A stretch of DNA of 64,000 nt, taken from Kondoa subrosea (lineage: Eukaryota). Under the pieces are notes generated by a model. It made no database searches. It saw only the letters and a list, made by a program, of their open reading frames with translations, and had not been told where the DNA came from. Every line of letters starts with the position of its first letter. Positions within the stretch are counted from its first letter, which is position 1. Shown here in pieces: positions 11,631-42,684 of the stretch. The translations under genes were made by a program, and so were the position numbers. Where the stretch lies: the NCBI GenBank assembly GCA_039545335.1, contig BCIN01000007.1, positions 62,001 to 126,000 of the forward strand. The letters are read 5' to 3'.

Positions 11631-12755
11631 CTACGACCAAACAGCAGGTTGAGTCGCCTCTTCTTGAGCAGGAACAGCAGGTCCCTTTTCGGTAGCTCTT
11701 TCGAACGCATCTTTGCCATCGCTTCCCTTTTGGAGTGGGTCTGATCTCTTCTCTTGATCTTCTTCTATGATCTCTGACTCTTCTTGTTCTGCTTCTGGAC
11801 CAGGTTTACTCCAACTGACAGCTGAACCATCGCCTTGTTCATTCATAGCCAAAGCATAAATGACCGCTTCATCCGAAAGATTATCCAACCTGAACGTTTC
11901 CTTTCTGAACCAAAGTACCATTTGTTCCAAATTCTTAGCGAAATTCGCTTCCCTTTCAATTTCTTGTTGAGGTGATAAAGAAGTTTCATCTTCTACTGCA
12001 GCAGCAATTAAAGGGTTTGAAGGTTCTGGCGCTTTTGAACCAGTTACACCACCCATTCCTTTTCCCCAAGCAGCACCAAACAAATTTCTCCACAAAGCAG
12101 AAGCTAAAACCGTATCGTTGTTAATTAGAGCTTCATCAAAAGCCATGATTGAACCATGATGTTGACTTAGAAGATCTTGCATATGACCTTTTACTGCTCT
12201 TTGTTGTTTGACATTATAGTAATTTGGTGATTGCATTCTATATTCTGAATCGATAAAGAAATGGTTGATGAGTTCTTGAGTGAAATTTCTACCAATTGGT
12301 GAAGGTAAACCTCTGAATCTGACTGTCAAGAGGTAGATATGTAGGTTTGTGATTTGGAACCAAGCTTGAAAAGATTTAGGTAAACCACATTCTGTCAGTC
12401 ATTACCACTCAATACATCTGATTACAGAACTAGTACGAATGAGAGGGAACTGACGATTGTACCAGAAATCAGCATGTCGATCATGGATTTCGCTAGTGAC
12501 ATTGTAATAATGGTTCGTAGACCTAACAGCTGCAGTTCTTCTTGGAGAATAACCCAAAAGAGAAGCCACATTAATCAAAGCATCCCTTTTCCAACCTGTA
12601 AGTTTTGGTCCTGCTACAGGTGAGGAAACGGGTGGTGTAGCTGTTGGATCGACTGAGATTTCAGAAGCATAGAATCTTCGACCATTGAGCAATGGAAGAG
12701 CGTTGGAGCTTAAGAGTCGTGGTGTGCTTCTTTTGGCTGTTCTTAAGAGTGACAT
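11631..12755 (-). CDS. CBP3: Ubiquinol-cytochrome c reductase assembly chaperone
   Basis: Mitochondrial presequence; CGLPKSFQAWFQITNLHIYLLTVRFR; AFDEALINNDTVLASALWRN. Confidence 0.9.
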
Positions 12756-12938: not shown

Positions 12939-15900
12939 ATGCCAAGAATCGACCCTGGAAATCCAGAATATGGTGCATGTCCCTTCATTTAAAAATCAAC
13001 AAACACAGATCTTGATGCTTGTGTGTTGGCAGTGGAATACCTACAAGAGGAATTAGACAAGATCTTAGCCAAAGACGTCGACAACAAATCACGTTACTCT
13101 TACCAGAAGGTCTGTGCTATATACCTTCGCGTGAACTGTGTACATACATGCTGAAGCTATACTACAGGCTATTCAAGGTCTCAAAACCTGTCGTATGAGG
13201 TGTTCTAGTCACTTTTTCTTCTCTTCTGACTGCGATATTCACGTGGCAGCGGTCAGGTGCAACAGTCCTAGCGATGCTCTAGAGATTAAAGGCATTGGTC
13301 CGAATATGGTCAAAATCCTACGCAAGTACATCAAGAAGAACGAAGAGGGTATGTCCGCATTATACCCTGTTCAATGATCAAGTTGATAGAGAACAGAAGG
13401 TTCCGATGCGGAAGAAAGACCGGAGAAGAAAGCTGCACCTAAAGGAAAGGCGAAAAAGAAAGCTGATGTAGATGTGTCGGTACGTCTGACCTGCTCTTGA
13501 CTAGAATGATGGCTAATTCCGGTACAGGACGATTCGGACGAGGATTCTCGCAAAAAGAAGACTACCAAGAAACCTGTTTCAAAGAAGCGAAAAGCAGCAG
13601 CTTCATCTGTATGGACTACTTGACATATACCAGAACTACGCTGATATAAAAGTCACAGGACGAAGAAGTTCAATTGGATGATGATTTCGATATTCTTGAT
13701 CCGAAAGCAACTCGAAAAGCAATCAAAGGCAAAGCCGATAAACCAAAGAAAGTCAAACGTTCTTCTGCAGCCAATGCTCGTGCTTTTGCTTTGTCAGAAG
13801 ATGAAACCGATACACCTTTATCGCCTGGAAAGAAAAAGACTACTAAGAAAGCTTCTCCTACAAAGACTAAAAAGAAGAAACGTTATGTACCTAAACTCAA
13901 TTCTGTTCCTTTTGGTGTTTTGGTTGCCATGTATAAAGAATGTGGGAAAGATCAAGACAATTGGAGAAAAGTTGGGTTTGATAAAGAGGATTTAGCTAAA
14001 AAAGCTCAGAAATTCACTACTACTGATATGATGGATAAAGTAGCACCAAAAGGAGCTGCTTCAGGTTGGGCTTATACTGGAATTTCTTGCATCAAGACTT
14101 TGGTTGAGAAAGGTTGTATTGTCAAAAAGGGTAGATCACCGGTCATGCATTACCTTACCGATCGAGGATTGACTACGGCTGCTAAATGTGCGGAATCGGC
14201 GGAAGTCACTAAATGGGATTTACCTGATGATTTGGATGATGCAAGCTTTGATGAAGGGGGAAAGAAGGATGATGATGATGACGATGATGATGAAAGACCA
14301 AAGAAGAAAGCAAAGACTACTGCAATCAAGGAGAAGAGCAAAAGCAGCAAAAAGAAGAAAGATGCTACTTCTGAAGAGGAAAGTGAAGAGGAAAGACCGG
14401 CGAAGAAAAAGCCTAGAGTTTCCACCAGTCGTCTGCCTTCTGGTATCGAACAGGATAGCAATGATGAAGAGGGTCAGTCGAACTGTTACGTCTGCGCTCG
14501 AACGATGCTGATTCGACGATACAGGTCCTTTCCATTTCATGTTCATTGATGATGGTACGTTGTGTTCAAATCAGCTTAATTCGCGCTAATTTTGTACTTA
14601 CACAGGAGGAGATCGCACCATGACGAAAGCGGACGCTGAATGTATGATGTCTCCTGTCTATGGTGCGACCTTATGCAAGATCGAATTCCGCTCTGCCCAA
14701 AGTCGGCATACTATGGCTAAATACATTGAAAAGAAGCAACGCAACAACGTCGCTGAACCTGGTCCCGAAGGTTCTACTGAGTTTGGCTTTATTCCTCGTT
14801 CCAAGACTGGTCCAGAAGCAACTGGTTTCCCAAAGAAGAAAGCGCCTCGTGAATCTGCTGCTGTCAAAGAGAAAGCTGTCGATTCTCTTATGGGTGGTCA
14901 GAAGAAGAAAAAACCTGTCGATAAAGCAGCAATGTACAAGATGCCTTCTCAAACCAAATCAGATGATGCTCCTGGACCTTCTTCAAATGCTTTTTCTTAC
15001 GCAAACAACAGCGACGAAGAGGCAGAACAGCTTGAAAGAGTCAAACGTGCATCTGCTGCTGAAGCTCGTCGTCAAGCTGAAGCTGCAAGTCGTCCGCCAA
15101 AAGAAGATGATGATTCAGGACCTGTTCCAAAACCTAAGCGAGCTTCCACTTCTAATGCTCCTGAACCGAGAGCTTCCACGTCTTCTCTTAACAATGCTAC
15201 TCGACCAATGTTTCAACGCAACATTTCTACTATTACCAAAGAATTTACTCCTTTCGATACTCGTCAAGCTGTGGTGATGCGATCTGGCGAATTTAAAGTG
15301 AAGATCTGTCTCGACAATAGAGAGAGGGGCTACGAGAAGAAGTTCAAAGATGATTCGAATGCAATTGTCACGCAATTGGCGACTGGAGATGTTGTTTGGG
15401 TCGCGGAAAGAAAGGTCCCATCTGGTAATCCTGAAAACGATAGGATTGTTTTGGATGGCGTAGTTGAGAGAAAGACTTTGGCTGATTTGGTCGGTTCGGT
15501 CAAATCGCGCCGGTATGAAGATCAGAAGGTGAGGTCTAGCATTACATGCAGCGGCATATCCCTTATCATGTGACGCAGAGGCGCATGAAGCAATCCGGCA
15601 TGACTCGTTTGTACTATTTGATCGAGAACGATGACAAGGCAGCTGTAAAAGGCTTTGAGCAAATGGTCAAAACGGTCAAGAGTCAAACTCAGGTTTTGGA
15701 TGGCTTCATTTGTCATAATTTCAAGGGAAAGGTTGATGCCGTCAAGCATCTCAAGCGAATGACAAGGGTGATGTCCGAGATCTACGAGGTCAGTTGATTG
15801 CTGGCACATATTCTAGTTTTTGACTAAATTTTGCCAAACAGCACAAAACACTTTATGGTATTCCTTCGCATTCAACCTCTCGAGCGAGCTATCTAAAGCA

Positions 15901-16660: not shown

Positions 16661-19600
16661 ATGACTTTCGGTATCCTAAATGACAAACACCTGGAAACAG
16701 TACCAGGTGCGCTGCAGAACTTATACCGGGCTTGAGCAGTCTGATCTTCTCGTGCAGGCACGGCGCTTCTTGATGACTTGAAGAAGAGTCAGTTTGACGG
16801 CATCGACACAAGTCACCTGAAGAAGTCGAGGGATGGAAAACATATTCTGGGTGAGCATTACTGCACTGTTCTGCTTGGCCTTTATTAATACCTTTCTCTG
16901 CAGTTCCGCAACCTTCTGATGATCCAAGGGATCCGCTGTGAGCACATATAAAGTGACTCAGCGCTGATTGCTGATGGGTTTGGCTTGTTAGAAATTGGCC
17001 AATGATGAAGAGTAGGTCAAAACCTATGTCAAATCGTATTATAACTAACTTCTGTTTCAGAACAACTCTGCTTCTGGACACTGCTTCTGATGGTTCGTGT
17101 TGCGTCTTAGTCTGCTTGCGTATGTAACTGAGATCCCATCAGGCTGGGATAGTTTGTTCTACATCTTAGTTTCAGTGGCATTTGTGACTGAGATCCCATC
17201 AGGCTGGTGCTTGCGGTCCTCTTGTCTCATCGGGCTGTAAGTTTCGTCCTTTAGTGTGTTATCTCCAGCTCATGACTCTCCTGCCTAGACGTACAAATCG
17301 CGGTCGACACGGGCTCTTCAGTCAACTCAGTAGCAGGTATGCCAAGAACCTCATCAGTAGCAACAGCGTTCACTCATGTCTTTGCTTAGCCAGCAATGGA
17401 TGGCTTCTCATCGGTCTCGGTGTTGCTATGTTCTTCCAAAGGTTTGGCTTCTTTTCGGATCCGTAGATGAGCTCACATTTGTCCATAGCGCTCTTGCTGT
17501 CAAGTTCGGTCGCCGACCAGTATTCATTGTTTCTGCCATCATCCTCTTCACTGGCTTCTTGTGGTATGTCGCTTGCGGTGTAATTCATCAAGTGCTCATA
17601 TCACATTGAAGGTCTGGTGCGGCGAAAAGTGACACTTCTTTCACTGTCTCGCGAGTGTATCAAGGTGTTGGAATGGCATCATACGAAGCTTTGGTCACTG
17701 CAACTATCGGAGATCTTTGTGTGTTTAGTTTTTCCATCAGAAGGCAAAAACTTAGCCTTCTATAGTCTTTGTTCACCAAAGAGGCAAAGCAATCGTCGCA
17801 TGGGGATTCGCTGTGAGTATTATCGCTTGACGACTTTCCCTTCATACTTATGGTTGCTGTTTTGCTCAGATCATTTCTGGAATTTCGGTTGCACCTTTGG
17901 TGAACGGCTACATCATTGAATCACCTCTGAGATGGAAGTGGTGTTTTTGGCTAGCTAGTTCTATCACAAAAACGAAGCCAGATTTAGGGCTCATTCCCCT
18001 TGACTTTTAGGTTGGCATTGTCACAGGAGTTTTCACTATGTAAGCTTATTTGCTTGCCTGCTTGCCTATGCTAATATATTTCTCTTAGCATGGTGATCCT
18101 CTTTGTCCCGGAAACGTAAGGCTGTTCTTGTCAACGTGTTATTGTCCGCTCACTTTTGAACTCCGGTGCAGCGTTTACGACCGTGATGCCGCCTACGAAA
18201 CTGATGCTGGCGCCTCAGCTGCCGGTGTCGCCAAAGTCAACGCAGCTGCCGATATCGTAGACCACAAACAATCTGGCGATGATGAAAAGGGCGAAATTGA
18301 TCAAGCGGAACATGTACTCGAAGCGGCTCATATCAGACACAATTACCTACCTGCCAAGACCTTTGTGCAAGAGCTGGCTCCTTGGTCTGGTTATGTCTCA
18401 CCGGTCTCATTCTGGAAGCTCTTCCTAAGGCCATTCCCTATTGCCCTTTCTCCGTGCGTTATATGTAACAGTGTCGTAGTCTTGAGCTCACGATCAAGCT
18501 AGCGTGGTCTTCTGTGGTTTCTGGATCTATGTTTGTCAACTTCATCCGTAGCGCCTTTCGTGTTCGCTTATGTCTATGCTCTTTTGAATTACACAGGGTG
18601 TTACTACCGCCTGGATTGTCACTTTATCCGTCTCATCGTCCATCATTTTCGGAGGGTGAGTGGTTGCCGTTCGAACTTCTTACTTTTGCTGACTTCCGTA
18701 ATAGACCACCGCTTCTGTTCAACGCCAAACAAGTCGGTTTGATGTCTGTTGGTCCTTTCATTGCCTCTATTCTTGGCGCGATGGTTGCCGGTCCTTTCCT
18801 GGATTGGTGCTCCGTTAGTTTGGCAAGGCGCAACAGAGGTGAAGTTCAAGTAATTTATCATATACGCCATTCTGAAAATATCTTGCAGGTGTCTTCGAAC
18901 CCGAATTCCGCTTGGTCTTACTCATCCCAATGTTCATAATCTGCGGTGCTGGCTTCCTGGGCTGGTATGGAATTCTCAAGAATGAAGTTGCAGGATGGAT
19001 TGGTCCAGAAGGTATGTTGCGGCCATTGCATAAAGATCATGTGCTGATGTTCCTTCAGTCATGTACAGGTACGCTGAACTGGTAGTGCGATATCGTCAGC
19101 GCTTATCCAACTTTCGTCTGATTCAGCTTGATCGTAAGTTGGCTTTCCTTGGCGATGTCGGCTATGCTCATGGCTGTTATTCATCATAGTACTTTGGAAA
19201 CGGTCTAGGCTCTTCCGCTGTGTGTACCGTGGTGTTTAGCCCCGCCGCGCAAGACTCATGCCTTTACTAACACAGATTGTTTCATACGTGGTCGATGTGC
19301 ATCGCAAGACGAGCGCGTGAGTTGTCCACTGTCCTCCTCCGTCCGACGCATGTATTGATCTCTTAAGTTCACAGTGAGGCATTCACTATCATCAATTGTC
19401 AGTACTCAGATAAGGGGAAAAGCCACAGAGCTTTGCTGACTGTGCTGCGCGATCAATAGTCACTAAAAACATGCTGATCTATGGCATCACTCAATTCGTG
19501 GTCAACTGGTATGCATTGCTGTCTTCCTTTCTTTAGCCTGTACCAATTTCGCACACAGGATCCTTGACTGGACAATCCCAACCATTATGCTTACACTCAC

Positions 19601-19811: not shown

Positions 19812-20274
19812 GCAACTCTCTTGAAGCAGCATCCACGTGTTACGGAGTAACATTGTGGCCTGCTCATCTAAGGTTGTGGAGGGACTTTATGTGTTTAAGG
19901 GCTCGATAGGCGGGACGTCTAGCGCGGTCTTGCACAATTGTACAGTGTAACAACATACGAATGAAGAATAAACGTCATTGACTTGCATCTGACCATTGAC
20001 GCATACCAGCAGCGTGCAGGCTTACTAGTGTTGACAATAGCCTACAGCGTATGAGCATAAGGGTTGCCTTCCCACCTATTGTAAACTTCAAACTTGTTCA
20101 GCTAAATTGAGCTCTTGGATTCCGACAGGCATCACGAGCTATTCGCTGGCGTCCAGAACGGAAAGCGATTCAAACGCAAGACTACCCAGAGCTTTGAGGC
20201 CAGATACAATCAACGTGATTGGATTCGTCTTGGCAAGACAATTTCCCATATTCCCCTCTGGACAACTTGAAGCC

Positions 20275-21667
20275 ATGAGATCTCTACCCGCTGAGCTAGT
20301 ACTCGCTGTCTTATCTCATCTTCGCGATGAACCCTCTCAATCTTTGGCTCGGGCTGCTCGCGTCTCCAAGTTCTTCTATGAAACCTTGAGGCCAATATTA
20401 TGGTCAAATATAACCCAACATCAATGTGAACATGATAGCTTCTACAATACGATTACGCAAAGCAAGTCTTTGGGAAAGTTGGTCCAATCAATTGAGATCA
20501 GATGCTATCTGGAAGTTGTTTACATGGGCGAAGAAATGTCTGAAGACAGTGAAGAGGAGTATCACTCTGCGGCTGACGTTGCGTCGATGCGGCAAATATC
20601 AAAAGCTCGGCTGTATAGGAATTTGGCCTGCTTGCAATTCTGCGAGCGTCTTGAATCATTAACCTTCTTCATTGCTGCTTCAGACTACCAAGAAGTCGAT
20701 GTATATGACGAATTGTTAGCTCACTATGTGGCCGTACCCGCAATGGAAGATCTGCGCCATCTACCGTGCTTGCCTCGTCTCAAGCAATTGGTCATTTCTT
20801 CTGAATTCGCTTCTAATTCGGTCGATTACTCGGCTTTCGGTTACTTGGCGGCTTCAGCACCTCAGCTCACTTATTTATCGGTGACATCTGTTCATTCTCA
20901 TGCTTTCTTCGATCAAATTTATGCAACACAGCTGAGGCACCCAAACTCACTTGCCAATTTGAGTACCTTTGTATGGGTAGTTGAAGGGTACGAAGGGAAC
21001 GATATGGAATTCGGGACTGCCGATATGCTCATGTGCGTTAGATGTCTCGTCGGCAGCAGTGTTCTTGTTCGCTCATGCGCGGGTTCCTGGAGTAGGCATC
21101 TCAATTACATGCAGTCTGTCAACAATCTGAAACTGAATAATGGCGAAGCAGGACCTATTCCCTTCTCCCTTCGATCTTCCAGATACTCCGAATTTCAATG
21201 TTACAAGCTTGGTATTAGAGGGAACTGCTGCCAATGTTTTGCACCTAGAGGCCATGAATCAACATTTCCCGTCTTTGAATCATCTGGAACTCCCCCTAGA
21301 CCTTGAATTTTACGGGGACGAGAACTCATCAGCTATTCTTTTGGAAAATGTGACATACAAGCAACTTACGAGTCTCAAGATTTCCGGCCGATATAGCCGT
21401 TTTCTTCACGTTCTCCATCGCATGCTAATATACAATACCACAATCTTTCCGAAGCTGGCGGTAGTTCGCATCATGCTTAGTGCAGTTCAAACACCAAAAC
21501 AGAATCTGGTAATGGAGCAATTGGTGGCAGACTGGTCGAGAGATGGCATAGGTAGAATAGAGACGTATTTTCAGGCCGGCGCGAGCAAGATGCACAGGTC
21601 AAGAGATGGAGTATGGTTCTCAGAAATGAAAGTCGGCGTGGGGATTGAGCTAGCGTTGGAAGCGTAA
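20275..21667 (+). CDS. F-box protein (family member 2), one intron near 21033-21095
   Basis: MRSLPAELVLAVLSHL..LARAARVSKFFYETLRPILW. Family motif DLRHLPCLPRLKQLVI..DYSAFG. Confidence 0.7.
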
Positions 21668-29594: not shown

Positions 29595-32260
29595 ATGTCG
29601 AAGCTCTCTAGCAAAGCCAAAGGCAAGCAGCCTATGCGGAATAAAGGGAAACCAACCAAGTCCAAGAGAGAAGAAGGAGCTGAAGTGATTGAACGATTGC
29701 AAGAATCTGTGGACATCTTGGATGCTCGAGGATCTTACAAGTCTTTTACTGAGCTACCTCTTTGTACCCCAACTCAACAAGGTCTCGAGAATGCAAAGTT
29801 TTCTTCCTTGACTCCCATTCAAGCTAAAGCGTTACCTCTGGCTTTGAAAGGTTGGTTGCAGATCTTCTTCATTTCGCTCTGAAATGTTGAAGGACGGTCC
29901 AAATCAACAGGTCACGACGTACTTGGAGCAGCTCGGACTGGCTCAGGCAAAACTCTAGCTTTCTTGATCCCAGTATTAGAATGTCTCTTCCGAAAGAAAT
30001 GGGGGCCTATGGATGGACTAGGCGCTTTGATCATTAGTCCAACGAGAGAACTTGCTGTGCAGATCTTTGAAGTGCTCAAGAAAATTGGAGGACAGCATAC
30101 TTTCTCGGCTGGATTGATCATTGGAGGCAAGAACCTCAAAGATGAGAAAGAGAGACTGCAGGGCATGAATATTCTAGTTGCTACTCCTGGTCGATTACTA
30201 CAGCATATGGACCAGACTGTGGGATTCGAAGCAGATAACTTGCAAATGCTGGGTACGATGCATTCGCACAACGAAGATTACATGCTCATTATGCGACACC
30301 AGTTCTGGATGAAGCTGATCGTATTCTCGATCTTGGATTTGCTTCTGCTCTGAATGCTATAGTAGCCAATCTACCAGAAGAACGTCAAACTTTGCTCTTT
30401 TCAGCAACTCAAACCAAATCCATCAAAGATCTTGCTCGCTTGTCTCTTCACTCACCAGAATATGTCTCAGTTCGAGATGCTCAAGCACCTGCTTCCACTT
30501 CTACTTCTACAGCAACAGAAGAAGCATCAACAAACCTCGACGTTCCTTCTTCCCTCACTCAACATTACTTAGTAGTCAATCTAGATGACAAGCTTAACCG
30601 ATTATGGTCTTTTATCAAAACTCATTTATACCAAAAAACAATTGTCTTCCTTTCTTCCTGCAAACAAGTTCGATTCGTATATGAATGTTTCAGACAACTT
30701 CGACCTGGTGTACCATTAATGCATTTGCATGGGAAACAAAAACAAATGCAACGCTTAGAAATTTACAATCGTTTTTCAGGAATGGAACAAGCTTGTTTGT
30801 TTGCTACAGATGTTGCTGCAAGAGGATTAGATTTCCCTGGAGTGAATTGGGTCGTTCAATTGGATTGTCCGGAAGATGTGGATACTTATGTTCATAGAGT
30901 TGGTAGAACTGCTAGGTATACAGCTAAAGGAAAAGCACTCTTGTTTTTGTTACCTAGTGAAGAAGAAGGAATGGTTAAAAGGTTGGATGCAAAAGGTGTT
31001 AAAGTTGAAGCTATCAAAGCTAGAGATAGCAAACAGGTTCAAGTTCAAAAACAATTGCAATCTCTTGCTTTTAGGAATACGGATGTCAAATTCTTAGCTC
31101 AAAGGGTCAGTGAATACTCTGGGTTTAGCAATATGAAATTGCTTACTCCTTGGGTTTATCTGACAGGCTTTCATCTCATACGTTCGATCAATCTATTTGC
31201 AGAAAGATAAAAGAGTCTTCAAATTTGATGAACTACCTTTAGAAGCTTTCGCGTTATCATTAGGTTTAGCAGGTGCACCTCAACTCAAGTTCCATAGTAA
31301 AGCGGATGCATCAACAAAAAAGAATGCAGTTCGATCTGTTCAAGCGTTGAAAGATAGTTCGATTGTTGCGGATTTGGAAGAAGAGACTAGTGAGGATGAG
31401 GAAGAGGAAGTAGAGACGGGCAAGAACGTTTTCGGTGGTGCTTCGGGTGGTGATCTAAATCAGGTCGAAAGCGAGAAGGTCAGGAAAGATACGTGATTCA
31501 TTGGCTTTATGCTAATGTTGCGGAGTTCCTTTCTGACAGACTGCCAAAACAAAATACGATCGGATGTTTCAACGCAAGAATCAGAACATTCTTTCTGAAC
31601 ACTACAACAAGCTTGTGGATCGAGAAGATGATGACAAAGAAGATGCAGACGATTTCATTACTCTCAAGCGAGCGGATCATGATCTCGAGAAAGACGAAGA
31701 AGCGGACAATCATGTTTCTAATCGCAAACTTCGAGCAGGAACGAGCAAGAAGAAGATGTTGGCTGTGAAAGGACTAGGCAACAAACTCGTCTTCGATCAA
31801 GAAGGTGGCGCGCATCCTTTGTATGAGATGGAGAACGAGGAAGATTTCGTCGCTGCTGGCGGTGCCAAAGAATTGGGCAAGAAGTTTGTTGAAACTGAAA
31901 GGAAGGCCATGAAAGTCCGAGATTTGGTAGACAAGGAGAGGTTGAAGGAGAAGAAGCGAGAGAAGAAGAGAAAGAGGAAGGAAACGGATGCTGTGAGCTT
32001 TGACTATCTAAAGTTGCAGCCTCAAAGCTGATTGCTTCGCGTATTAGAATGAAGCCGCTGCTCCAGCTCTGGGTAGTGAAGATGGAGGAGAAGATGGCTA
32101 TCAATCTCCTGTGTTTGACTTGCCAACAGATGAAGAGGCAGATCGAGCAGCAGAAGCAGAAGTTGCTTCGCAGCGAAAGCCGAAGAAGGCGAAACGAGCT
32201 GCTTATGCCGAGCAAGATCTGGAAGCTCTGGCGCTTAAAGCGCTGGGCAAGAAGCGTTAA
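29595..32260 (+). CDS. DBP4: DEAD-box RNA helicase Dbp4/DDX10
   Basis: [66 protein letters not shown]. Confidence 0.95.
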
Positions 32261-35443: not shown

Positions 35444-36278
35444 ATGAGTGAGAAGATAGACGGAGGCAACGAAGCGCCAAAGGTGAAGCTCTCGCGCTGT
35501 CCTCTCTATTTGCTACTGTTCACAATGCTTATTGTAATCCGTGCTTTCTCTCCATTTCCATTCCTTCAATCTCCTTCTGCTCTGCCTACTCGCACCAATG
35601 ACTGTTCATTAGGCGGTGATCAAGTCTACTGATATGGAGGAAGATATGCAGCAAGCTGCTGTGGACATCTCAATTGAAGCAATGGACAAATACGTTTGTC
35701 TTTACACTCTCTTACAAGATCACGCAAGCCCTGATGCTGTTTCCTTTATGTGATCAGAGCGTGGAGAAGGACATTGCTAGTCACATCAAGAAGGAATTCG
35801 ATAAGAAATACCAACCAGTTAGTTTACTCTAACTGCCTATGCGTCCTTTTATGCTTATGACTGCGCGCTTCCTCTTTCAGGTATGGCATGTCGTTGTTGG
35901 AAAGAACGTGAATGCTTCCTAGGCGCTATACTATCGATATACTGACGAGATCTGGAACGTACTGTTCAGTTTGGAAGCTTTGTTACACATGTACGTTCAC
36001 CGTGCAAAGTATCGGCATGTCGCTGATGCCAGTGCCTGATCGTACAGGAGACAAAGTGAGTTTGTATTCGACCAACTTTTCTGATACGCGCTGATTGTGT
36101 TTCGCCTTGAAGACACTTTTTCTATGGCTATGTTGGACCTATCGCTGTGGTTTGTTGTCGCTAGAGCGCTTCAGATTTATCTGATGAGCTCGCGTGATGA
36201 TCGAACAGCTGATATTCAAGGCGTGTACTTTTCGAATTTATTATGCTTTGGATCTGATCATCTCTCTAGTCTGGTTGA
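35444..36278 (+). CDS. DYN2: Dynein light chain LC8, 9 coding exons
   Basis: [58 protein letters not shown]. Confidence 0.93.
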
Positions 36279-36457
36279 TTCGTTCGCAATAAGAGACATC
36301 AGGAAAAGGGAGTAAGAGAGAACAAGCATAGCATGAGTTATTATCAGAGCAATATACGGGGGACAAAGCACCGAGCGTATGAGCGAGATTAACGAGACTA
36401 TATAGAATACATTTGACCACGAAGACTACTTTTATACTTCTTTGATCTCCCCTCAAT

Positions 36458-37241
36458 CTAATCAATTCGATCCCTGAGATTTGCTGGGCGTCCCGGAGAT
36501 ACTGAACGCCTTCGTGCGGGCGCAGCAGCCGCAGCAGGTGCACTTTTCGTCCTGTGAACGAGCCATAAAGGGTTAGACATGATCATGTCAGACTTTGAAA
36601 GCTCCACTCACGTAGCAGACTGAGGTCTGATGAAAGCGAAATCGCAGTGAATCTTTTGTTCGAGGAGCATAGAATCGCTAGCTCCAGCAATAGCAGCTTC
36701 TGCTTCCCTTCTCGTTTCATATTCAACCAAAGCGTACCCTTTGACGTAACCCGTCCTTCGATCTAAATTGAGGTGTAAGTTTTTGATATCACCAAATTCC
36801 CCAAATTTATCTTGAACGTCTTCTTCTGTCGCTTCTTCGTGTACGTTTGTAGCTAATACAATCCATCCTTCTACGGCTATATCCACACTCATGTGAGTAC
36901 GGTTCATGAGGAAAGAGAAAGGAGCAAGGGAGAGGGACTTACAGCGAGCTGCTTTGCCTGCTGTAGCTTCATGTGTATCGTCTAATCTATCAAAATTGGC
37001 ATTCTTGCCAAGAAGATCTCTATCTGTCAGTCACGCAGTCTAAGCCCTGAGAAAGAGCATAGGTTGAAGCGTAAGAATGACCTGCTGATGGTACATCTGC
37101 TCCAGCTTTAAAGCCACGGCCTTTCCTCTTGACTCCAGCGTCTGTTCGCAGAAGCAACTAGAATCAGATATACTCTGATATCCAGTGTCTGCAGTGCGAA
37201 CCGTCAATGTCCATTGTTTGAGCAGGTTTATCAATTTCCAT
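36458..37241 (-). CDS. RBM8A: Exon-junction complex RRM protein Y14
   Basis: [60 protein letters not shown]. Confidence 0.95.
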
Positions 37242-37420
37242 AATTGCAGAGTGGGAGAATGAGATCTATGAGGATGTCGAGGAGCAGGATCAGTACAAGA
37301 CTGATTTGCTACGCCTGAGACCCTCACATAAGTCGAAGAGTCGTGAACACAGAACAACCCTTTTACGATTTTGCGCTCGAATTAGGGATCTCTTCCCCTA
37401 ACAATCACATTCTTGGGACT

Positions 37421-39203
37421 ATGTCACGCACTATAGGAGGATTCACTCGAACTAGAACCTCAACTCAGCAACAAACTCAATCCACTGAATGCCCTAAACC
37501 GGATGATAACTTTCCACCTTTGAGAGTGTTGGTTTTCGTTGGTGTAGTGTAGGTCGTCTTCCTTTTCTTGTTCTATCTCTGTGTTGGGCCATGTTTGCTT
37601 CTATGCTGGATTTGAGGCTTTCAACTCGCTGGAGATCGATCAGAACTTTGTGCTTCGGTGCCATTGGGCTCGAATCGTATATTTGTGCTGCGGTTCTTCG
37701 ATACTTTGCTCTATCTCTCTATCTTTCATCTCTATACGAGTGCTTTAACGATGCCATGTTCTTACTTTGAAATGATGTCAAACATATGGTTCTGCAATTC
37801 TGATAAGTTCATGATTGATTAACCTTCAATTACACATTACATTACATTACATTATTTACTGATCAAAGTAATCTCTTCATCGTTGATGAGCTCGTCATCT
37901 TTCCTCTTTTTACCCTTCTTGAATTGCGATTCGGCTGTCTTTCGGAAAAAGGAAAGCTGATGCGTTTTGATTATGACAGCGGATCGGGAAAATCGACATT
38001 ATCTAAAGCGATAGTGGATCAACTAGACGTACGTATTGACTTCGGTAGTATCAAAATTTTGATGACTCGGAAGCCAATCGTACAGAACTGGTCAAGAGTT
38101 TGTCAAGATGTCAGTCACTTGTCCAAATCAGGAATTAGGGGCGTATGCTGACTTCGAGAAGGAAAGGAACTAGGCAATAGACAAGCTTGTGAATCTATGG
38201 CTCGAAGCTACTTGACCCAGGTATGCACGACGGAAATAGTTTTAGCTTGCGCTGATGGAAACTTTTCCTTCGTTGCTACAGGTACTTTTGTCTTGCAGTG
38301 AATCATATGTCTAGGCTAATTGACCCGGACTTTGCAAATGTCAGGTAAGTCGAGAAGTATCAGTCACATTTGCGTGATTCAGGAGTTCCGATATTACAGG
38401 GTCGTCACCTCATTATTGATCGCCAAAACTTCAATGCAGCACAAAGGCATCATTTCGTTCAACTTGCACGAGCTTTTACGGTAGAATTGACGGCCGTAGT
38501 ATTTGATGTTTCACCCGACGTGCGTCAGTGTTCCCTGCATATCAGTTCACAACTGATGCGTAGGACGGATGGTGTACAGGAATGCGCACGGCGACTTAGG
38601 AGGAGAACTAATCATCCTACTATCGAATCGCCTGAGAAAGCTTTGGAGCTGCTGGACAGTTTTCTAGATATTTTCGAAGACGTTTCCGAATCAGAGGTAC
38701 GGCACTCCGAGGTCTTTTCCATTAGTGGAATGAACCGTGGGCTTGTTGTACAGGGATTTGATCGGATCTTTACTCTACCCAATAATCTACCTCTTGCACC
38801 TACTCGAGCAGATCTAACCAGTCTCATTTCTTCAATTGATGCAACACCTAAAATCTCTCCTTCGCGTTCAACATCAACAAGAGGTAGAGGTCGAGGTTCA
38901 CGAGGCAATAATACTTCAACACGAGGGAACGCTAGAGGTAGAGGAGCAGGAAGTGGGACTTTACCACCTCGAACCAATCCTTGGACAACTGCAGCAAGAG
39001 GTAGAGGGAACAATCGAACTACCAATGCTTCGGAAGGTGGGAATAGGTTAGGTGGATCTTCGACTTCCAATTCAAATACGATGACAAGCGATTCAAGTAT
39101 TGATGCTGCGGATTTGAGAGCTAGGAGGGAAGCTGCTTTGAGAGCTATTGAAGCAAGGTCACAGTCAAATACAAGTACATCAAGGCATGATGAAATTCTG
39201 TAA
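37421..39203 (+). CDS. P-loop nucleotide/polynucleotide-kinase-like protein (AAA_33-type) with RG-rich tail; snoRNA host gene
   Basis: Walker A GVVGSGKST (split by a 431-nt intron), WSRVCQDELG, QGRHLIIDRQNF..QR, ECARRLRRRTNHPTI, RGRG repeats. Confidence 0.8.
37762..37871 (+). ncRNA. Intronic box C/D snoRNA, predicted guide for 2'-O-methylation of the 5.8S rRNA Gm75-equivalent (SNORD96-like target)
   Basis: Perfect 9-bp terminal stem TTACTTTGA (37762-70) / TCAAAGTAA (37863-71). Box C ATGATGT at 37772, D' CTGA at 37800, C' ATGATTG at 37811, D CTGA at 37859. Guide TTCTGCAATT is complementary to 5.8S AAUUGCAGAA. Confidence 0.85.
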
Positions 39204-39241
39204 TGTATTACTTTGAACTTGTACTACCACGCTATCATCAT

Positions 39242-40728
39242 ATGGATCAAGAAGCTTTTCGTGCTTTGTTAGCTACTCCTCGTGATTCTGCTACTCCAGC
39301 CCGTGCATTCGGCAGTCGTCTGCCTAAGCGAAACCATGATCTTTCCTCTGCACCGAAAGAGACTGCTTTGAATTTGAAACCTAGGCCTAGTAAACCAGCT
39401 GCAGGTATAAAGGGGAAAGGGAAAGGGAAAGTACAGGATACAGAAGAGGAAGGATCAGCTGGGAATGGATATGTAGATAGAGCTAAACTTCGTCGACTGG
39501 GCAAGGCGAACGAATACTCTGATGTGGATTCTATCAAAGCTGCTTTTGATGCTCGATTAGCTGCTAGTGACGGCGATGGACCAGTAGAAGATCAATCGCA
39601 ATACCTGGTTAGTCTCGCTGTCCCTTTCAATGGAGTATGCTGATTTGTTATATGCTCATAGGGAGGAGATGCTAAACATTCTGTACTCGTTAAAGGACTC
39701 GATCATTCCCTTTTAGCTCAGACTAAAGCCAAACAAGAACTTGAAGCTGCTAATCAAGCAGAAGAAGAACTCGATTCCCTTTTATCCATACCTACAACTA
39801 CTACTTCTACCACTTCAGTCACGACATCAAAGAAAAGATCAAGGCAAGATCGAATTGATGAATTGAAAGAGAAATTAGCAAGGAAGATTGCGGAACCGAA
39901 AGTAAATGATGAAGAAGAACAATTTCGATCAAAGTTTAGAAAAGTCGGTCAACAACAGCAGCAACAGGAGACTAAAAGTGTTACCACTGTTTATGGGAAA
40001 GTCAAGAAGTTGCGTAAGAAGAAGAAGATCGCTCCTGTTTCGGATACTGTACCTCAAGCAATAACAGCAAAAGTAGAAGAGTCTACAGACATAGCGCCTG
40101 CTTCTCTGTCTGAACCTATACCAGAGCCGAAGATGGCAGAAGACGACCCGCTAGACGATGTCGATCCTGATATGGACATATTTGGCGGTGTAGCAGAATA
40201 TGGTGCATCTGGATCTTCATCGGATGAAGAAGTCGAAGAAGGCGAAACCAAACCTTCACTTCCTTCCACTTCTCTTGCTCCAACAAAAGCCAATTGGTTC
40301 GATGATGATCAAGAAGAAATTCATGCCGATCCAATAGCTGCACCAGTTTTACCTAAAAGACAAGTTGTTCTAGTAGAAGAAGAAAACCCTACTTCAACTC
40401 GTTTGAAAGGTCTTGAAGGATCTAGTGTGGATGTGAAAAGTTTGTTGGAAGCGGATAAAGCTGCTGAAAAGGAAGAAAAGAGGAAAGAAAGGAAAGCGAA
40501 ATATGCGAAACCGGTCGCTGAAGGTGGTGGTACTGGAGAGGTCGCGGAAAAGAAGAAGAAGAAACTGACTGATGTGAGTCTTCCTATACCCTTTGTATTC
40601 TCAGATGGGACGAGATGCTGATGCAAAAGCGACAGGCCGATAAGTTAAATCGAGATCATCAGGAATTGGAAGCTTATTGGAAGAAGAAGAAAGGTGGTGC
40701 AGATGCTCAACAAGAGGATGATGAGTAG
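39242..40728 (+). CDS. RED/IK-like splicing-associated protein (RED_N region)
   Basis: MDQEAFRALLATPR, YVDRAKLRR, YLGGDAKHSVLVKGLD, DIFGGVAEY, KLNRD. Confidence 0.8.
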
Positions 40729-41081
40729 GAGATCAAGCGAGGATTGAGAGCTGCTACTATCGCCTTTTGAGCTAATCTAGTACTTCATGCGTTCATCGCA
40801 AACACGTTCTTCTGGTCTGTCTCCCTTTTTGTTTTCATCAGTTTCATACTGCCGTGCGATATCATGAGTACTGCGACTGCTCTGACTTAGATGCGCGCTT
40901 ATTACGCTTTCGACCTCTTTTCGATTTCTTGCTTCGAATGACCGACTTGTTGTTTGCCGTCAACACGCAGCAACATCGATAGACCTTGCTCAAGACTGAA
41001 CTAGTACAGAAGAGCTCAACTGGCCGCGCTCAATGTGCAGCAGAGCAAGAACATCTATAGCTAGGACGACTCTCGTCAGTT

Positions 41082-42684
41082 ATGCCCTCAAATCATAGTC
41101 AAACCAATGGCCACAGCTCTGACAACGTGGCGAGCAGCTGCACAATGGTGACCTTGCCCAAAGAAGTCCTCATCTTGATCATCTCATTCTTGCCTGTCGA
41201 GCGGTCTCATTCTAACTTGGCTTCACTCTGCCGCGTATCTACTCTATTCCGTAGCCTGGCACAACCTCTACTCTATCAATCTCCAAGTCTGAACCACCTC
41301 TTCGACAAGAAGTTCACCAGCTGCATCAATGCTCGGCCAGATTTCGCTTCCTTAGTCAAGGAAGTTCAAGTCACAAGTTATCTTCGATTGGAGCAAATGG
41401 ACGCCCAGCAATACTGGACAACTCGTGAACGAAGGGCTGCCGTGAACAGGGCACTTTCTGGCATGAAATCGCAATTCGATTGCTTGAAGACTTGCAGCAA
41501 TGTTACTGATTTCTCTTTTACTGCTTGGTGCTCACCGCCTGGCGGAGTGGATGAACAGCAACATCCAATAGCAGACGATGTTCCCTTTCCGACTTCTCTT
41601 CAAATACAAAGTCTGCCTTTCATCGCTGGCTTAACTAATCTCTGCATCGCTTGTCCTTTCTGGAGCCAAGCTGATTTCACCGATTTTGGCGAAGTTCTTC
41701 TCCGAACACCTCTTCTTGATACTCTTACTCTCCAACTTGTCGACATCGTCAGCCTCTTTGCGCCTTACCTCAAACGGAAAGCAACAGATTCAACTTTCAC
41801 TCTTTCGCCTCGATACCTGATATGGATCGAAACGTGTTATGAGGACGACGCAGTAGAAAATGGGCTGACAGAACAGACCCAAGAACTCTTTCAAACAATG
41901 GGATGTTTGCCTCGGGTCGAGAAATTGAAGGTCGTCAACGGCTATTTTCATGACCAGTATCGAGCCCATGGACAAACATCATCACCTTTAGCCAATATCA
42001 TAGATTTTATTGTTGAGCAAACCGATTTTGAGGGCGACGATGTCGGTTACATAGCCAATCAAGCACCTGAACTTCAACACCTTACTCTTTGTTGGCCAAC
42101 ACCTTATAGCGTCGATATCACCACAAAAGCCATCTTCTCCAAACTCACTACTCTCACTCTTAAAATCCCAAGAAATTTCGATCCAAGAAGACAATCTTTA
42201 ATGTACGCCATGGACAAACTTACTTTTGTTTTCAACCGAGATTTCTTCCCTAAATTGGAATTCGTCTTACTCGATCTCACTCAAGCTTGGCATTTAACAA
42301 CAAAACAAACTCAACATTTAGCCAAACAATGGACAGGCTTTGCTGAAAGTTCGAAAATTAGATCAAGAGTAGCTTATAGAGCAGATGTTTTCAATACTGT
42401 CGTTACTAGGGAAATTGATGGGACTTGTTGGATTGAAACTCTGGTTGGTGGAGAAAAGACTGTTTATAAACCTACTGCTAGATGTGAGATACTTTCCTTC
42501 TACGGTGATGTGTAAGAATGTACAGAGCTGATTCTTTATGGATTCGACAGTGCATGAAGTAGCTGATGATGATGAAGATCAAGAGGAAGAAGATGAGCTG
42601 CTAGATTACGATAGCGATCTATCTGGATTTGATGATGCGGATTACGATACTGACGAGGGTTATGATGACCGAAGAGGAAGATAA
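41082..42684 (+). CDS. F-box protein (family member 3), closest paralog of 5074-6633
   Basis: LPKEVLILII..LASLCRVSTLFRSLAQPLLY; LCIACPFWSQADFTDFG; YRADVFNTVVTREIDG..WIETLVGGE. Same terminal intron and acidic exon as member 1. Confidence 0.75.

Follow-up and report, generated by a model that had tools for sequence, protein, structure and literature searches.

A candidate intronic box C/D small nucleolar RNA predicted to guide 2'-O-methylation of 5.8S rRNA in a Pucciniomycotina basidiomycete

The stretch of Kondoa subrosea DNA analyzed here, referred to as the window, comprises 64 kilobases (kb) of contig BCIN01000007.1 (assembly GCA_039545335.1, positions 62,001 to 126,000) and carries, at window positions 37762–37871 of the plus strand, a candidate small nucleolar RNA (snoRNA) of the box C/D class. 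We consider it probable (about 0.72) that this element is a functional intronic guide for 2'-O-methylation of the G in 5.8S ribosomal RNA (rRNA) that is equivalent to human Gm75. If so, a basidiomycete box C/D guide for this site would be new, the fungal guide having been described before only in Pezizomycotina (PMC5824354). A literature search found no guide for 5.8S Gm in Basidiomycota; the supplementary lists of PMC5824354 could hold one.

The candidate RNA is expected to be about 100–110 nucleotides (nt) long, and its parts, with stem and helix lengths in base pairs (bp), are as follows.

37762–37770, plus strand: 5' half of the terminal stem, reverse-complementary without mismatch to 37863–37871
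37772–37778, plus strand: C box AUGAUGU, one spacer base away from the 5' stem half
Between the C and D' boxes, plus strand: spacer of 21 nt, the last ten bases of which are UUCUGCAAUU (37790–37799)
37788–37799, plus strand: D' guide, 10 Watson–Crick bp (37790–37799) plus two G–U pairs with 5.8S AAUUGCAGAAUU
37800–37803, plus strand: D' box CUGA, directly abutted by the guide UUCUGCAAUU and separated from C' by an 8-nt loop
37812–37818, plus strand: C' box UGAUUGA, with one extra U relative to UGAUGA
Between the C' and D boxes, plus strand: spacer of 40 nt
37859–37862, plus strand: D box CUGA, followed at once by the 3' stem half
37863–37871, plus strand: 3' half of the terminal stem, forming a perfect 9 bp with 37762–37770

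An earlier note on this DNA had described a 9-bp stem and C, D', C', and D boxes in that order, and every one of these elements was found where the note had put it. The order C–D'–C'–D, internal D' and C' boxes included, is that of the box C/D class, and the terminal stem is paired in both the minimum free energy and the centroid folds of the candidate. The seventh base of the C box is U instead of the A of the RUGAUGA consensus, and the base before the D box (37858) is A instead of the usual U. Because U7 of the C box can pair with A37858, stem II of the kink-turn (k-turn) would be kept, on the evidence of the sequence and the established k-turn model. As in other box C/D guides, the antisense element is at least 10 nt long, ends at D', and has its target at the fifth pair, where C37795, five bases upstream of D', pairs with the G of AAUUG in 5.8S rRNA.

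The 5.8S sequences used for comparison came from at least 43 contaminant eukaryotic ribosomal DNA (rDNA) loci in prokaryote assemblies, found by means of a published internal transcribed spacer (ITS) primer. Twenty of these loci were scanned with Rfam, which returned a 5.8S match in 19, and the complementarity of the guide was screened against 5.8S rRNA only. Scanning viral contigs for 5.8S rRNA with the published ITS primer gave 0 matches. Eukaryotic, mostly fungal-type rDNA thus occurs in many public prokaryote assemblies and metagenome-assembled genomes (loci L086–L128).

The proposed complementarity between the 10 nt before D' and a conserved 5.8S segment proved to be exact, the partner being 5.8S AAUUGCAGAA. 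The motif AATTGCAGAA occupies positions 70–79 of the Rfam-delimited 5.8S rRNA in 16/19 loci, corresponding to nine of the 12 distinct sequences; one of the remaining distinct sequences differs at the last base of the motif, and two are aberrant. The whole D' guide pairs with positions 70–81 through 10 Watson–Crick pairs and two G–U pairs. The rule by which the nucleotide opposite the fifth guide position is methylated, when applied to these fetched sequences, selects the G of AAUUG, and this part of the earlier note also holds on real 5.8S sequences. When the 5.8S segment is folded in isolation, it forms a 6-bp hairpin with a 4-nt GCAG loop (UGAAUU/GCAG/AAUUCA), in which this G takes the first loop position. 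The equivalent G is Gm75 in human 5.8S rRNA, where it is 92% methylated (PMC4605285), and Gm79 in Arabidopsis 5.8S rRNA, where the guide is snoR39BY (PMC8583080).

Arrangements of this quality are rare by chance. A C box and a D box joined by a stem of at least 5 bp occur twice on the two strands of the 64-kb window, and the candidate alone has a stem of more than 6 bp. In 300 dinucleotide-preserving shuffles of the window, stems of at least 5 bp were obtained for 162 candidates in all (mean of 0.54 per shuffle), of which 10 reached a 7-bp stem (mean of 0.033 for at least 7 bp) and none a stem of 8 or 9 bp. Among 665 CUGA sites, the D' site anchors the longest Watson–Crick helix with fungal 5.8S rRNA (10 bp, with 9 bp for the runner-up). 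When G–U pairs were allowed, 3/664 CUGA sites reached 12 bp against 5.8S rRNA, and two of these three are the D' and D boxes of the candidate.

Weak C/D-like arrangements, with ATGATGA or ATGATGT followed by CTGA, were also seen at 16997–17095 and 12148–12254 (both on the plus strand). Their 5-bp stems, which include G–U pairs, are about what the shuffles lead one to expect.

The candidate lies in the sense orientation within an intron of a gene whose first parts are listed here.

37421–37548, plus strand: host exon 1, an open frame ending in ...LVFVGVV, with a putative ATG start codon at 37421
37549–37979, plus strand: host intron of 431 nt (GTAGGT...ACAG), with a CTGAT branch-like motif near 37958
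37980–38028, plus strand: host exon 2 (GSGKSTLSKAIVDQLD, as translated after splicing)

Excision of 37549–37979 joins ...LVFVGVV to GSGKSTLSKAIVDQLD and restores a Walker A motif, GVVGSGKST, across the junction. The distance from the candidate is 213 nt to the 5' splice site and 108 nt to the 3' splice site. The contrast that had been drawn between this long intron and its short neighbors applies to the next two, which reading frames and splice signals put at 57 nt each (38029–38085 and 38110–38166), but perhaps not to the one that follows: the fourth intron region (38221–38399, plus strand) can be read either as one 179-nt intron or as two short ones flanking an out-of-frame micro-exon. No box C/D signals were seen by eye in 38221–38399 on the plus strand. 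The kinase-like host gene of the earlier note fared similarly. The Walker A motif is there, but AAA_33 scores 22.6 bits in the largest host exon, below the cut-off of 27, and a kinase-like P-loop identity is plausible but weakly founded.

We propose the processing route outlined here because it is the established pathway for intronic snoRNAs; expression, assembly into a small nucleolar ribonucleoprotein (snoRNP), and methylation of the target by the candidate are all predictions. The host P-loop gene would be transcribed and the 431-nt intron spliced out, upon which Snu13, Nop58, Nop56, and Nop1/fibrillarin would assemble on the C/D k-turn and the C'/D' motif, and exonucleases would digest the debranched intron as far as the 9-bp terminal stem. 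In the nucleolus, the 10–12 nt before D' would base-pair with AAUUGCAGAAUU in the 5.8S portion of the pre-rRNA, and fibrillarin would methylate the 2'-OH of the G opposite the fifth guide nucleotide (AAUUG; human Gm75, Arabidopsis Gm79). In doing so, the guide would have to open the 5.8S hairpin that holds the target G.

The taxonomic setting rests on a Dbp4-like helicase exon (30239–31210), which is closest to sequences from Sporobolomyces, Rhodosporidiobolus, Rhodotorula, Leucosporidium, Microbotryum, and Mixia, that is, to Microbotryomycetes and other Pucciniomycotina, with 65–70% identity. The window therefore comes from a Pucciniomycotina basidiomycete that has no close sequenced relative in the database searched, in agreement with the basidiomycete origin suggested earlier, and the candidate therefore falls outside the published range of the fungal guide CD_35. 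An ESM Atlas search with the helicase exon was uninformative as to taxon.

The closest known relative of the candidate is Afu_191 (Rfam RF01499; AM921920; CD_35) and not SNORD96. Afu_191 and the candidate share one antisense element before D', in an identical register (AGAAUUCUGCAAUaCUGA in the Afu_191 consensus), and the spacing between the C box and D' is similar. Afu-191 of A. fumigatus has been predicted to guide both 5.8S Gm75 and Am32 of U2 small nuclear RNA (snRNA) (PMC2377427), and "The fungal snoRNAome" describes AM921920/CD_35 as a double guide "found in Pezizomycotina" (PMC5824354). Against these likenesses stand several differences. The D guide of Afu_191 (…CUACACUUGAU), which targets U2 snRNA Am32, is absent from the candidate, where the D box is preceded by UUACAUUAUUUA and not by the U2 guide seen before CUGA in this family (…ACACUUGAU); Afu_191 is intergenic in A. 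fumigatus, whereas the candidate is intronic; and the Afu_191 family is reported from Pezizomycotina only (PMC5824354), whereas the window is of Pucciniomycotina type. A U2 guide combined with a different 5.8S site, Am42, is known from CD29 of N. crassa (PMC2780460).

Human SNORD96A, which the earlier note had named as the vertebrate guide for Gm75, is indeed described as the predicted guide for this nucleotide and is intronic, like the candidate (PMC7812721). As a counterpart of the candidate, it shares the predicted target nucleotide but no detectable homology: the SNORD96 model in Rfam gave no match to the candidate at E ≤ 10, the likeness is limited to the boxes and the guide, and Afu_191 is closer. 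The host genes differ as well, being GNB2L1/RACK1 for SNORD96A and a P-loop kinase-like gene for the candidate. Plant snoR39BY guides Arabidopsis 5.8S Gm79, a site mapped by RiboMeth-seq, but does so with its 3' (D) guide, the other guide being directed at 25S Gm814 (PMC8583080), and no Rfam match of the candidate to snoR39BY was obtained at relaxed thresholds. In TtnuCD34 of Tetrahymena (RF02308), the consensus closes with GUUCUGCAAUCCUGA, which places the antisense element of the candidate beside a CUGA box; in the Tetrahymena RNA, however, the element precedes the terminal D box, and the candidate scores 13.7–16.8 bits where 80 are needed. A literature search on TtnuCD34 found no paper. Taken by its predicted guide action, the candidate would work like the D' half of Afu_191/CD_35, SNORD96A, and snoR39BY. 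It cannot be shown to belong to any of these families, and it lacks two features that define Afu_191, a score at the gathering threshold and the U2 guide.

Loci of the same design were sought in metagenomes with a pattern taken from the candidate (C-box core, 9–17 nt, guide, D', 30–60 nt, D). This pattern matched 85 loci, 39 of which were sorted by eye into three recurrent snoRNA-like families; hence, the arrangement of C box, guide, D', and D recurs in nature. The other 46 are unclassified, and many of them resemble coding sequence while several are duplicates. Group A (15 loci) carries the U2 guide …ACACUUGAU before D and is Afu_191-like, with the RF01499 gathering score being reached by one of the ten loci scored. 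Group B consists of 13 loci with a guanine plus cytosine content of 0.26–0.38 (L018, L022, L023, L025, L028, L032, L040, L047, L049, L051, L055, L063, and L083), in which the 5.8S guide is extended by AUGUG, a conserved GUUUCUUCGGAAAC hairpin follows D', and terminal stems reach up to 13 bp. These loci probably stem from other eukaryotes, since the guide extension does not fit fungal 5.8S rRNA. Group C (11 loci) has GAAUUCUGCAAUU before D' and lacks the U2 guide; it occupies a conserved slot between a dynein intermediate chain gene, seen as the WD40 side in L019, L060, L062, and L006, and an aldo/keto reductase gene, seen in L024, L042, L069, L072, L073, and L013. Because the named relatives of its dynein gene are Sordariomycetes, group C is assigned to Pezizomycotina, where it resembles a single-guide offshoot of the Afu_191 type.

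Two other interpretations of group C were considered and rejected, namely that its members are basidiomycete relatives of the candidate (the named neighbors are Sordariomycetes) and that its WD40 neighbor might be the SNORD96A host RACK1 (the neighbor proved to be the dynein intermediate chain). A 5S rRNA gene (L052, 778–897, minus strand; 96 bits with Rfam) lies ~400 nt from a group C locus. Outside the three groups, L046, with two matches, and L059 make up a small family of snoRNA-like units of ~65 nt with the same guide; on one metagenome contig, the L046 units form a tandem pair spaced ~540 nt apart.

A second complementarity to 5.8S rRNA, directed at the single-stranded stretch just upstream, is present in the 3' half and involves these elements of the candidate.

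37847–37858, plus strand: putative D guide UUACAUUAUUUA, 12 bp (two of them G–U) with 5.8S UAAGUAAUGUGA
37833–37840, plus strand: CACAUUAC, a perfect 8-nt complement of 5.8S GUAAUGUG, just 5' of the D' target
37834–37854, plus strand: perfect (ACAUU)x4.2 microsatellite in the C'–D spacer (period 5, 100% matches; Tandem Repeats Finder)

We interpret this complementarity, with less confidence than the D' guide, either as accessory pairing by which the snoRNP would dock or as a further guide, directed at the U located 11 nt upstream of the target G. The corresponding explanation, in which the snoRNA is double-acting and its D-box half contributes too, is compatible with a functional Gm75-equivalent guide; on balance we regard it as doubtful. 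In one version, UUACAUUAUUUA would guide methylation of the U 11 nt upstream; in the other, UUACAUUAUUUA together with the ACAUU registers would dock the snoRNP by the hairpin. The 12-bp helix stands directly before D, and its 5.8S partner, UAAGUAAUGUGA, spans positions 59–70 and abuts the D' target. A D-anchored helix of this length was reached in only 5 of 20,000 shuffles of the 41-nt spacer and at only one unrelated site among 664 CUGA boxes, and the perfect 8-mer CACAUUAC comes in addition to it. Extra base-pairing by the target, described for yeast and human snoRNAs, raises methylation up to fivefold and is characteristic of those whose guides are short (PMC3116282); yeast snR70, snR75, snR76, and others have a second antisense element that pairs beside the methylation target in this way (van Nues et al. 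2011; PMC3116282), whereas the element in the candidate is predicted only, is derived from a microsatellite, and sits at the canonical position of a D guide. Double guides for neighboring sites also exist, as CD28 and CD32 of N. crassa have target sites 6–14 nt apart (PMC2780460). Among the metagenome loci with the same D' guide, an 8–10-nt Watson–Crick complement to the same 5.8S stretch was found in 4/11 loci of the Sordariomycete-type group C, but in 0/15 loci of the Afu_191-like group A, 0/13 loci of the low-GC group B, and 0/47 unclassified rows.

Several properties of the helix itself speak against a role of the D-box half. It is A/U-rich, contains two G–U pairs, overlaps the D' helix by one base, and derives for the most part from the (ACAUU)x4.2 microsatellite. 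It also depends on the 5.8S variant at issue, GAUAAGUAAUGUGA. The full 12 bp require the "GAUAAG" type, found in 5/12 distinct sequences, and with other types ("GAUACG") the D-anchored helix shrinks to 5–6 bp. The "GAUAAG" variant is probably the usual one in basidiomycetes. For methylation of the U 11 nt upstream, the parts of the literature covered by our search hold no record.

A more specific and less likely version, which we regard as speculative, is that both guides hold one 23-nt 5.8S stretch (positions 59–81) as a two-armed clamp, in which a slippage-prone (ACAUU)n tract, offering several alternative registers of accessory pairing, would aid the short 10-bp guide in invading the hairpin around the target G. 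Such an RNA may also specify a second, unreported 2'-O-methylated U, 11 nt upstream of that G. In Pucciniomycotina, the guide would then be either an independent acquisition or what is left of an ancestral eukaryotic Gm75 guide, because the known family is confined to Pezizomycotina and is otherwise unlike the candidate.

Returning to the candidate as a guide for the Gm75-equivalent through its D' element, a number of results weigh against this reading, in addition to the microsatellite origin and variant dependence of the second complementarity. The Watson–Crick core of the guide is 10 bp, compared with 13 in the Pezizomycotina families, and because no rDNA lies in the window, the 5.8S target had to be taken from other fungi. 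The C box that ends in U and the C' box with an extra U both deviate from the canonical boxes; split or divergent C' boxes are documented (PMC3116282). A perfect pentanucleotide microsatellite inside the RNA is unusual for a constrained snoRNA. The fold of the candidate is not more stable than that of its shuffles (z = −1.3), an unremarkable score that is usual for box C/D RNAs. No Rfam family matched the window at gathering thresholds, and relaxed searches gave weak matches only; these included Afu_191, with the same guide and register, at 15.5 bits as against a gathering score of 60 (E = 1.4–5.9). That this threshold was missed says little, as nine of the ten group A loci scored missed it too. 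When window positions 36000–40500 were compared with the 85 metagenome loci by blastn and tblastx, the guide alone matched and none of the loci shared the host gene, which means that no orthologous locus was found. The large exon of the host protein had no homologues at E ≤ 1e-3, and because the protein lacks detectable homologues, expression of the host gene is itself an assumption.

Some of these points would also fit a non-functional element, that is, motifs brought together by chance or the decaying relic of a snoRNA within a long intron, with no stable product made from it. The perfect internal microsatellite, the non-canonical C and C' boxes, and the lack of an Rfam match at gathering thresholds speak for this reading. 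We nevertheless consider it improbable, given that no C/D pair with a 9-bp stem arose in 300 shuffles and that an intact stem, four boxes, a compensated stem II, and 10 nt of guide matching a known methylation site exactly occur together. Slightly less probable still is a real, expressed box C/D snoRNA that is an orphan or acts on another target (25S or 18S rRNA, snRNA, or transfer RNA) through D' or D. In favor of it, the Watson–Crick core is only 10 bp, eight other CUGA sites in the window give chance helices of 10–13 bp with 5.8S rRNA once G–U pairs are allowed, and fungi can lack the site (S. pombe 5.8S rRNA, by mass spectrometry, has one pseudouridine only and no ribose methylation; PMC4605285). 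Against it, the guide ends flush with D', its target is among the very few positions of 5.8S rRNA known to be methylated elsewhere, and its register is identical to that of Afu_191 and the three recurrent metagenome families.

A credible guide in Pucciniomycotina suggests that 5.8S Gm75, a methylated site in animals and plants, is more widely distributed in Dikarya than the published fungal catalogue indicates, and such a distribution would fit an ancestral Gm75 site that was lost in yeasts. The candidate also makes a concrete prediction for RiboMeth-seq in a lineage that has been little studied and is a possible natural example of accessory pairing made from a microsatellite. The understanding of box C/D guides as such is unchanged by a finding of this kind, which we regard as sound but fairly ordinary.

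Other features of the window include an exon with an RRM domain at 36608–37030 (minus strand; Pfam RRM_1, E = 6.7e-14), which is located on the strand opposite to the host gene, upstream of it, and whose sequence resembles the exon-junction-complex protein Y14/RBM8A. F-box-like domains occur in two long open frames (20041–21306 and 41061–42515, both on the plus strand), an ERCC4 domain exon was found at 14590–15573, and a RED-like N-terminal region lies at 39662–40621.

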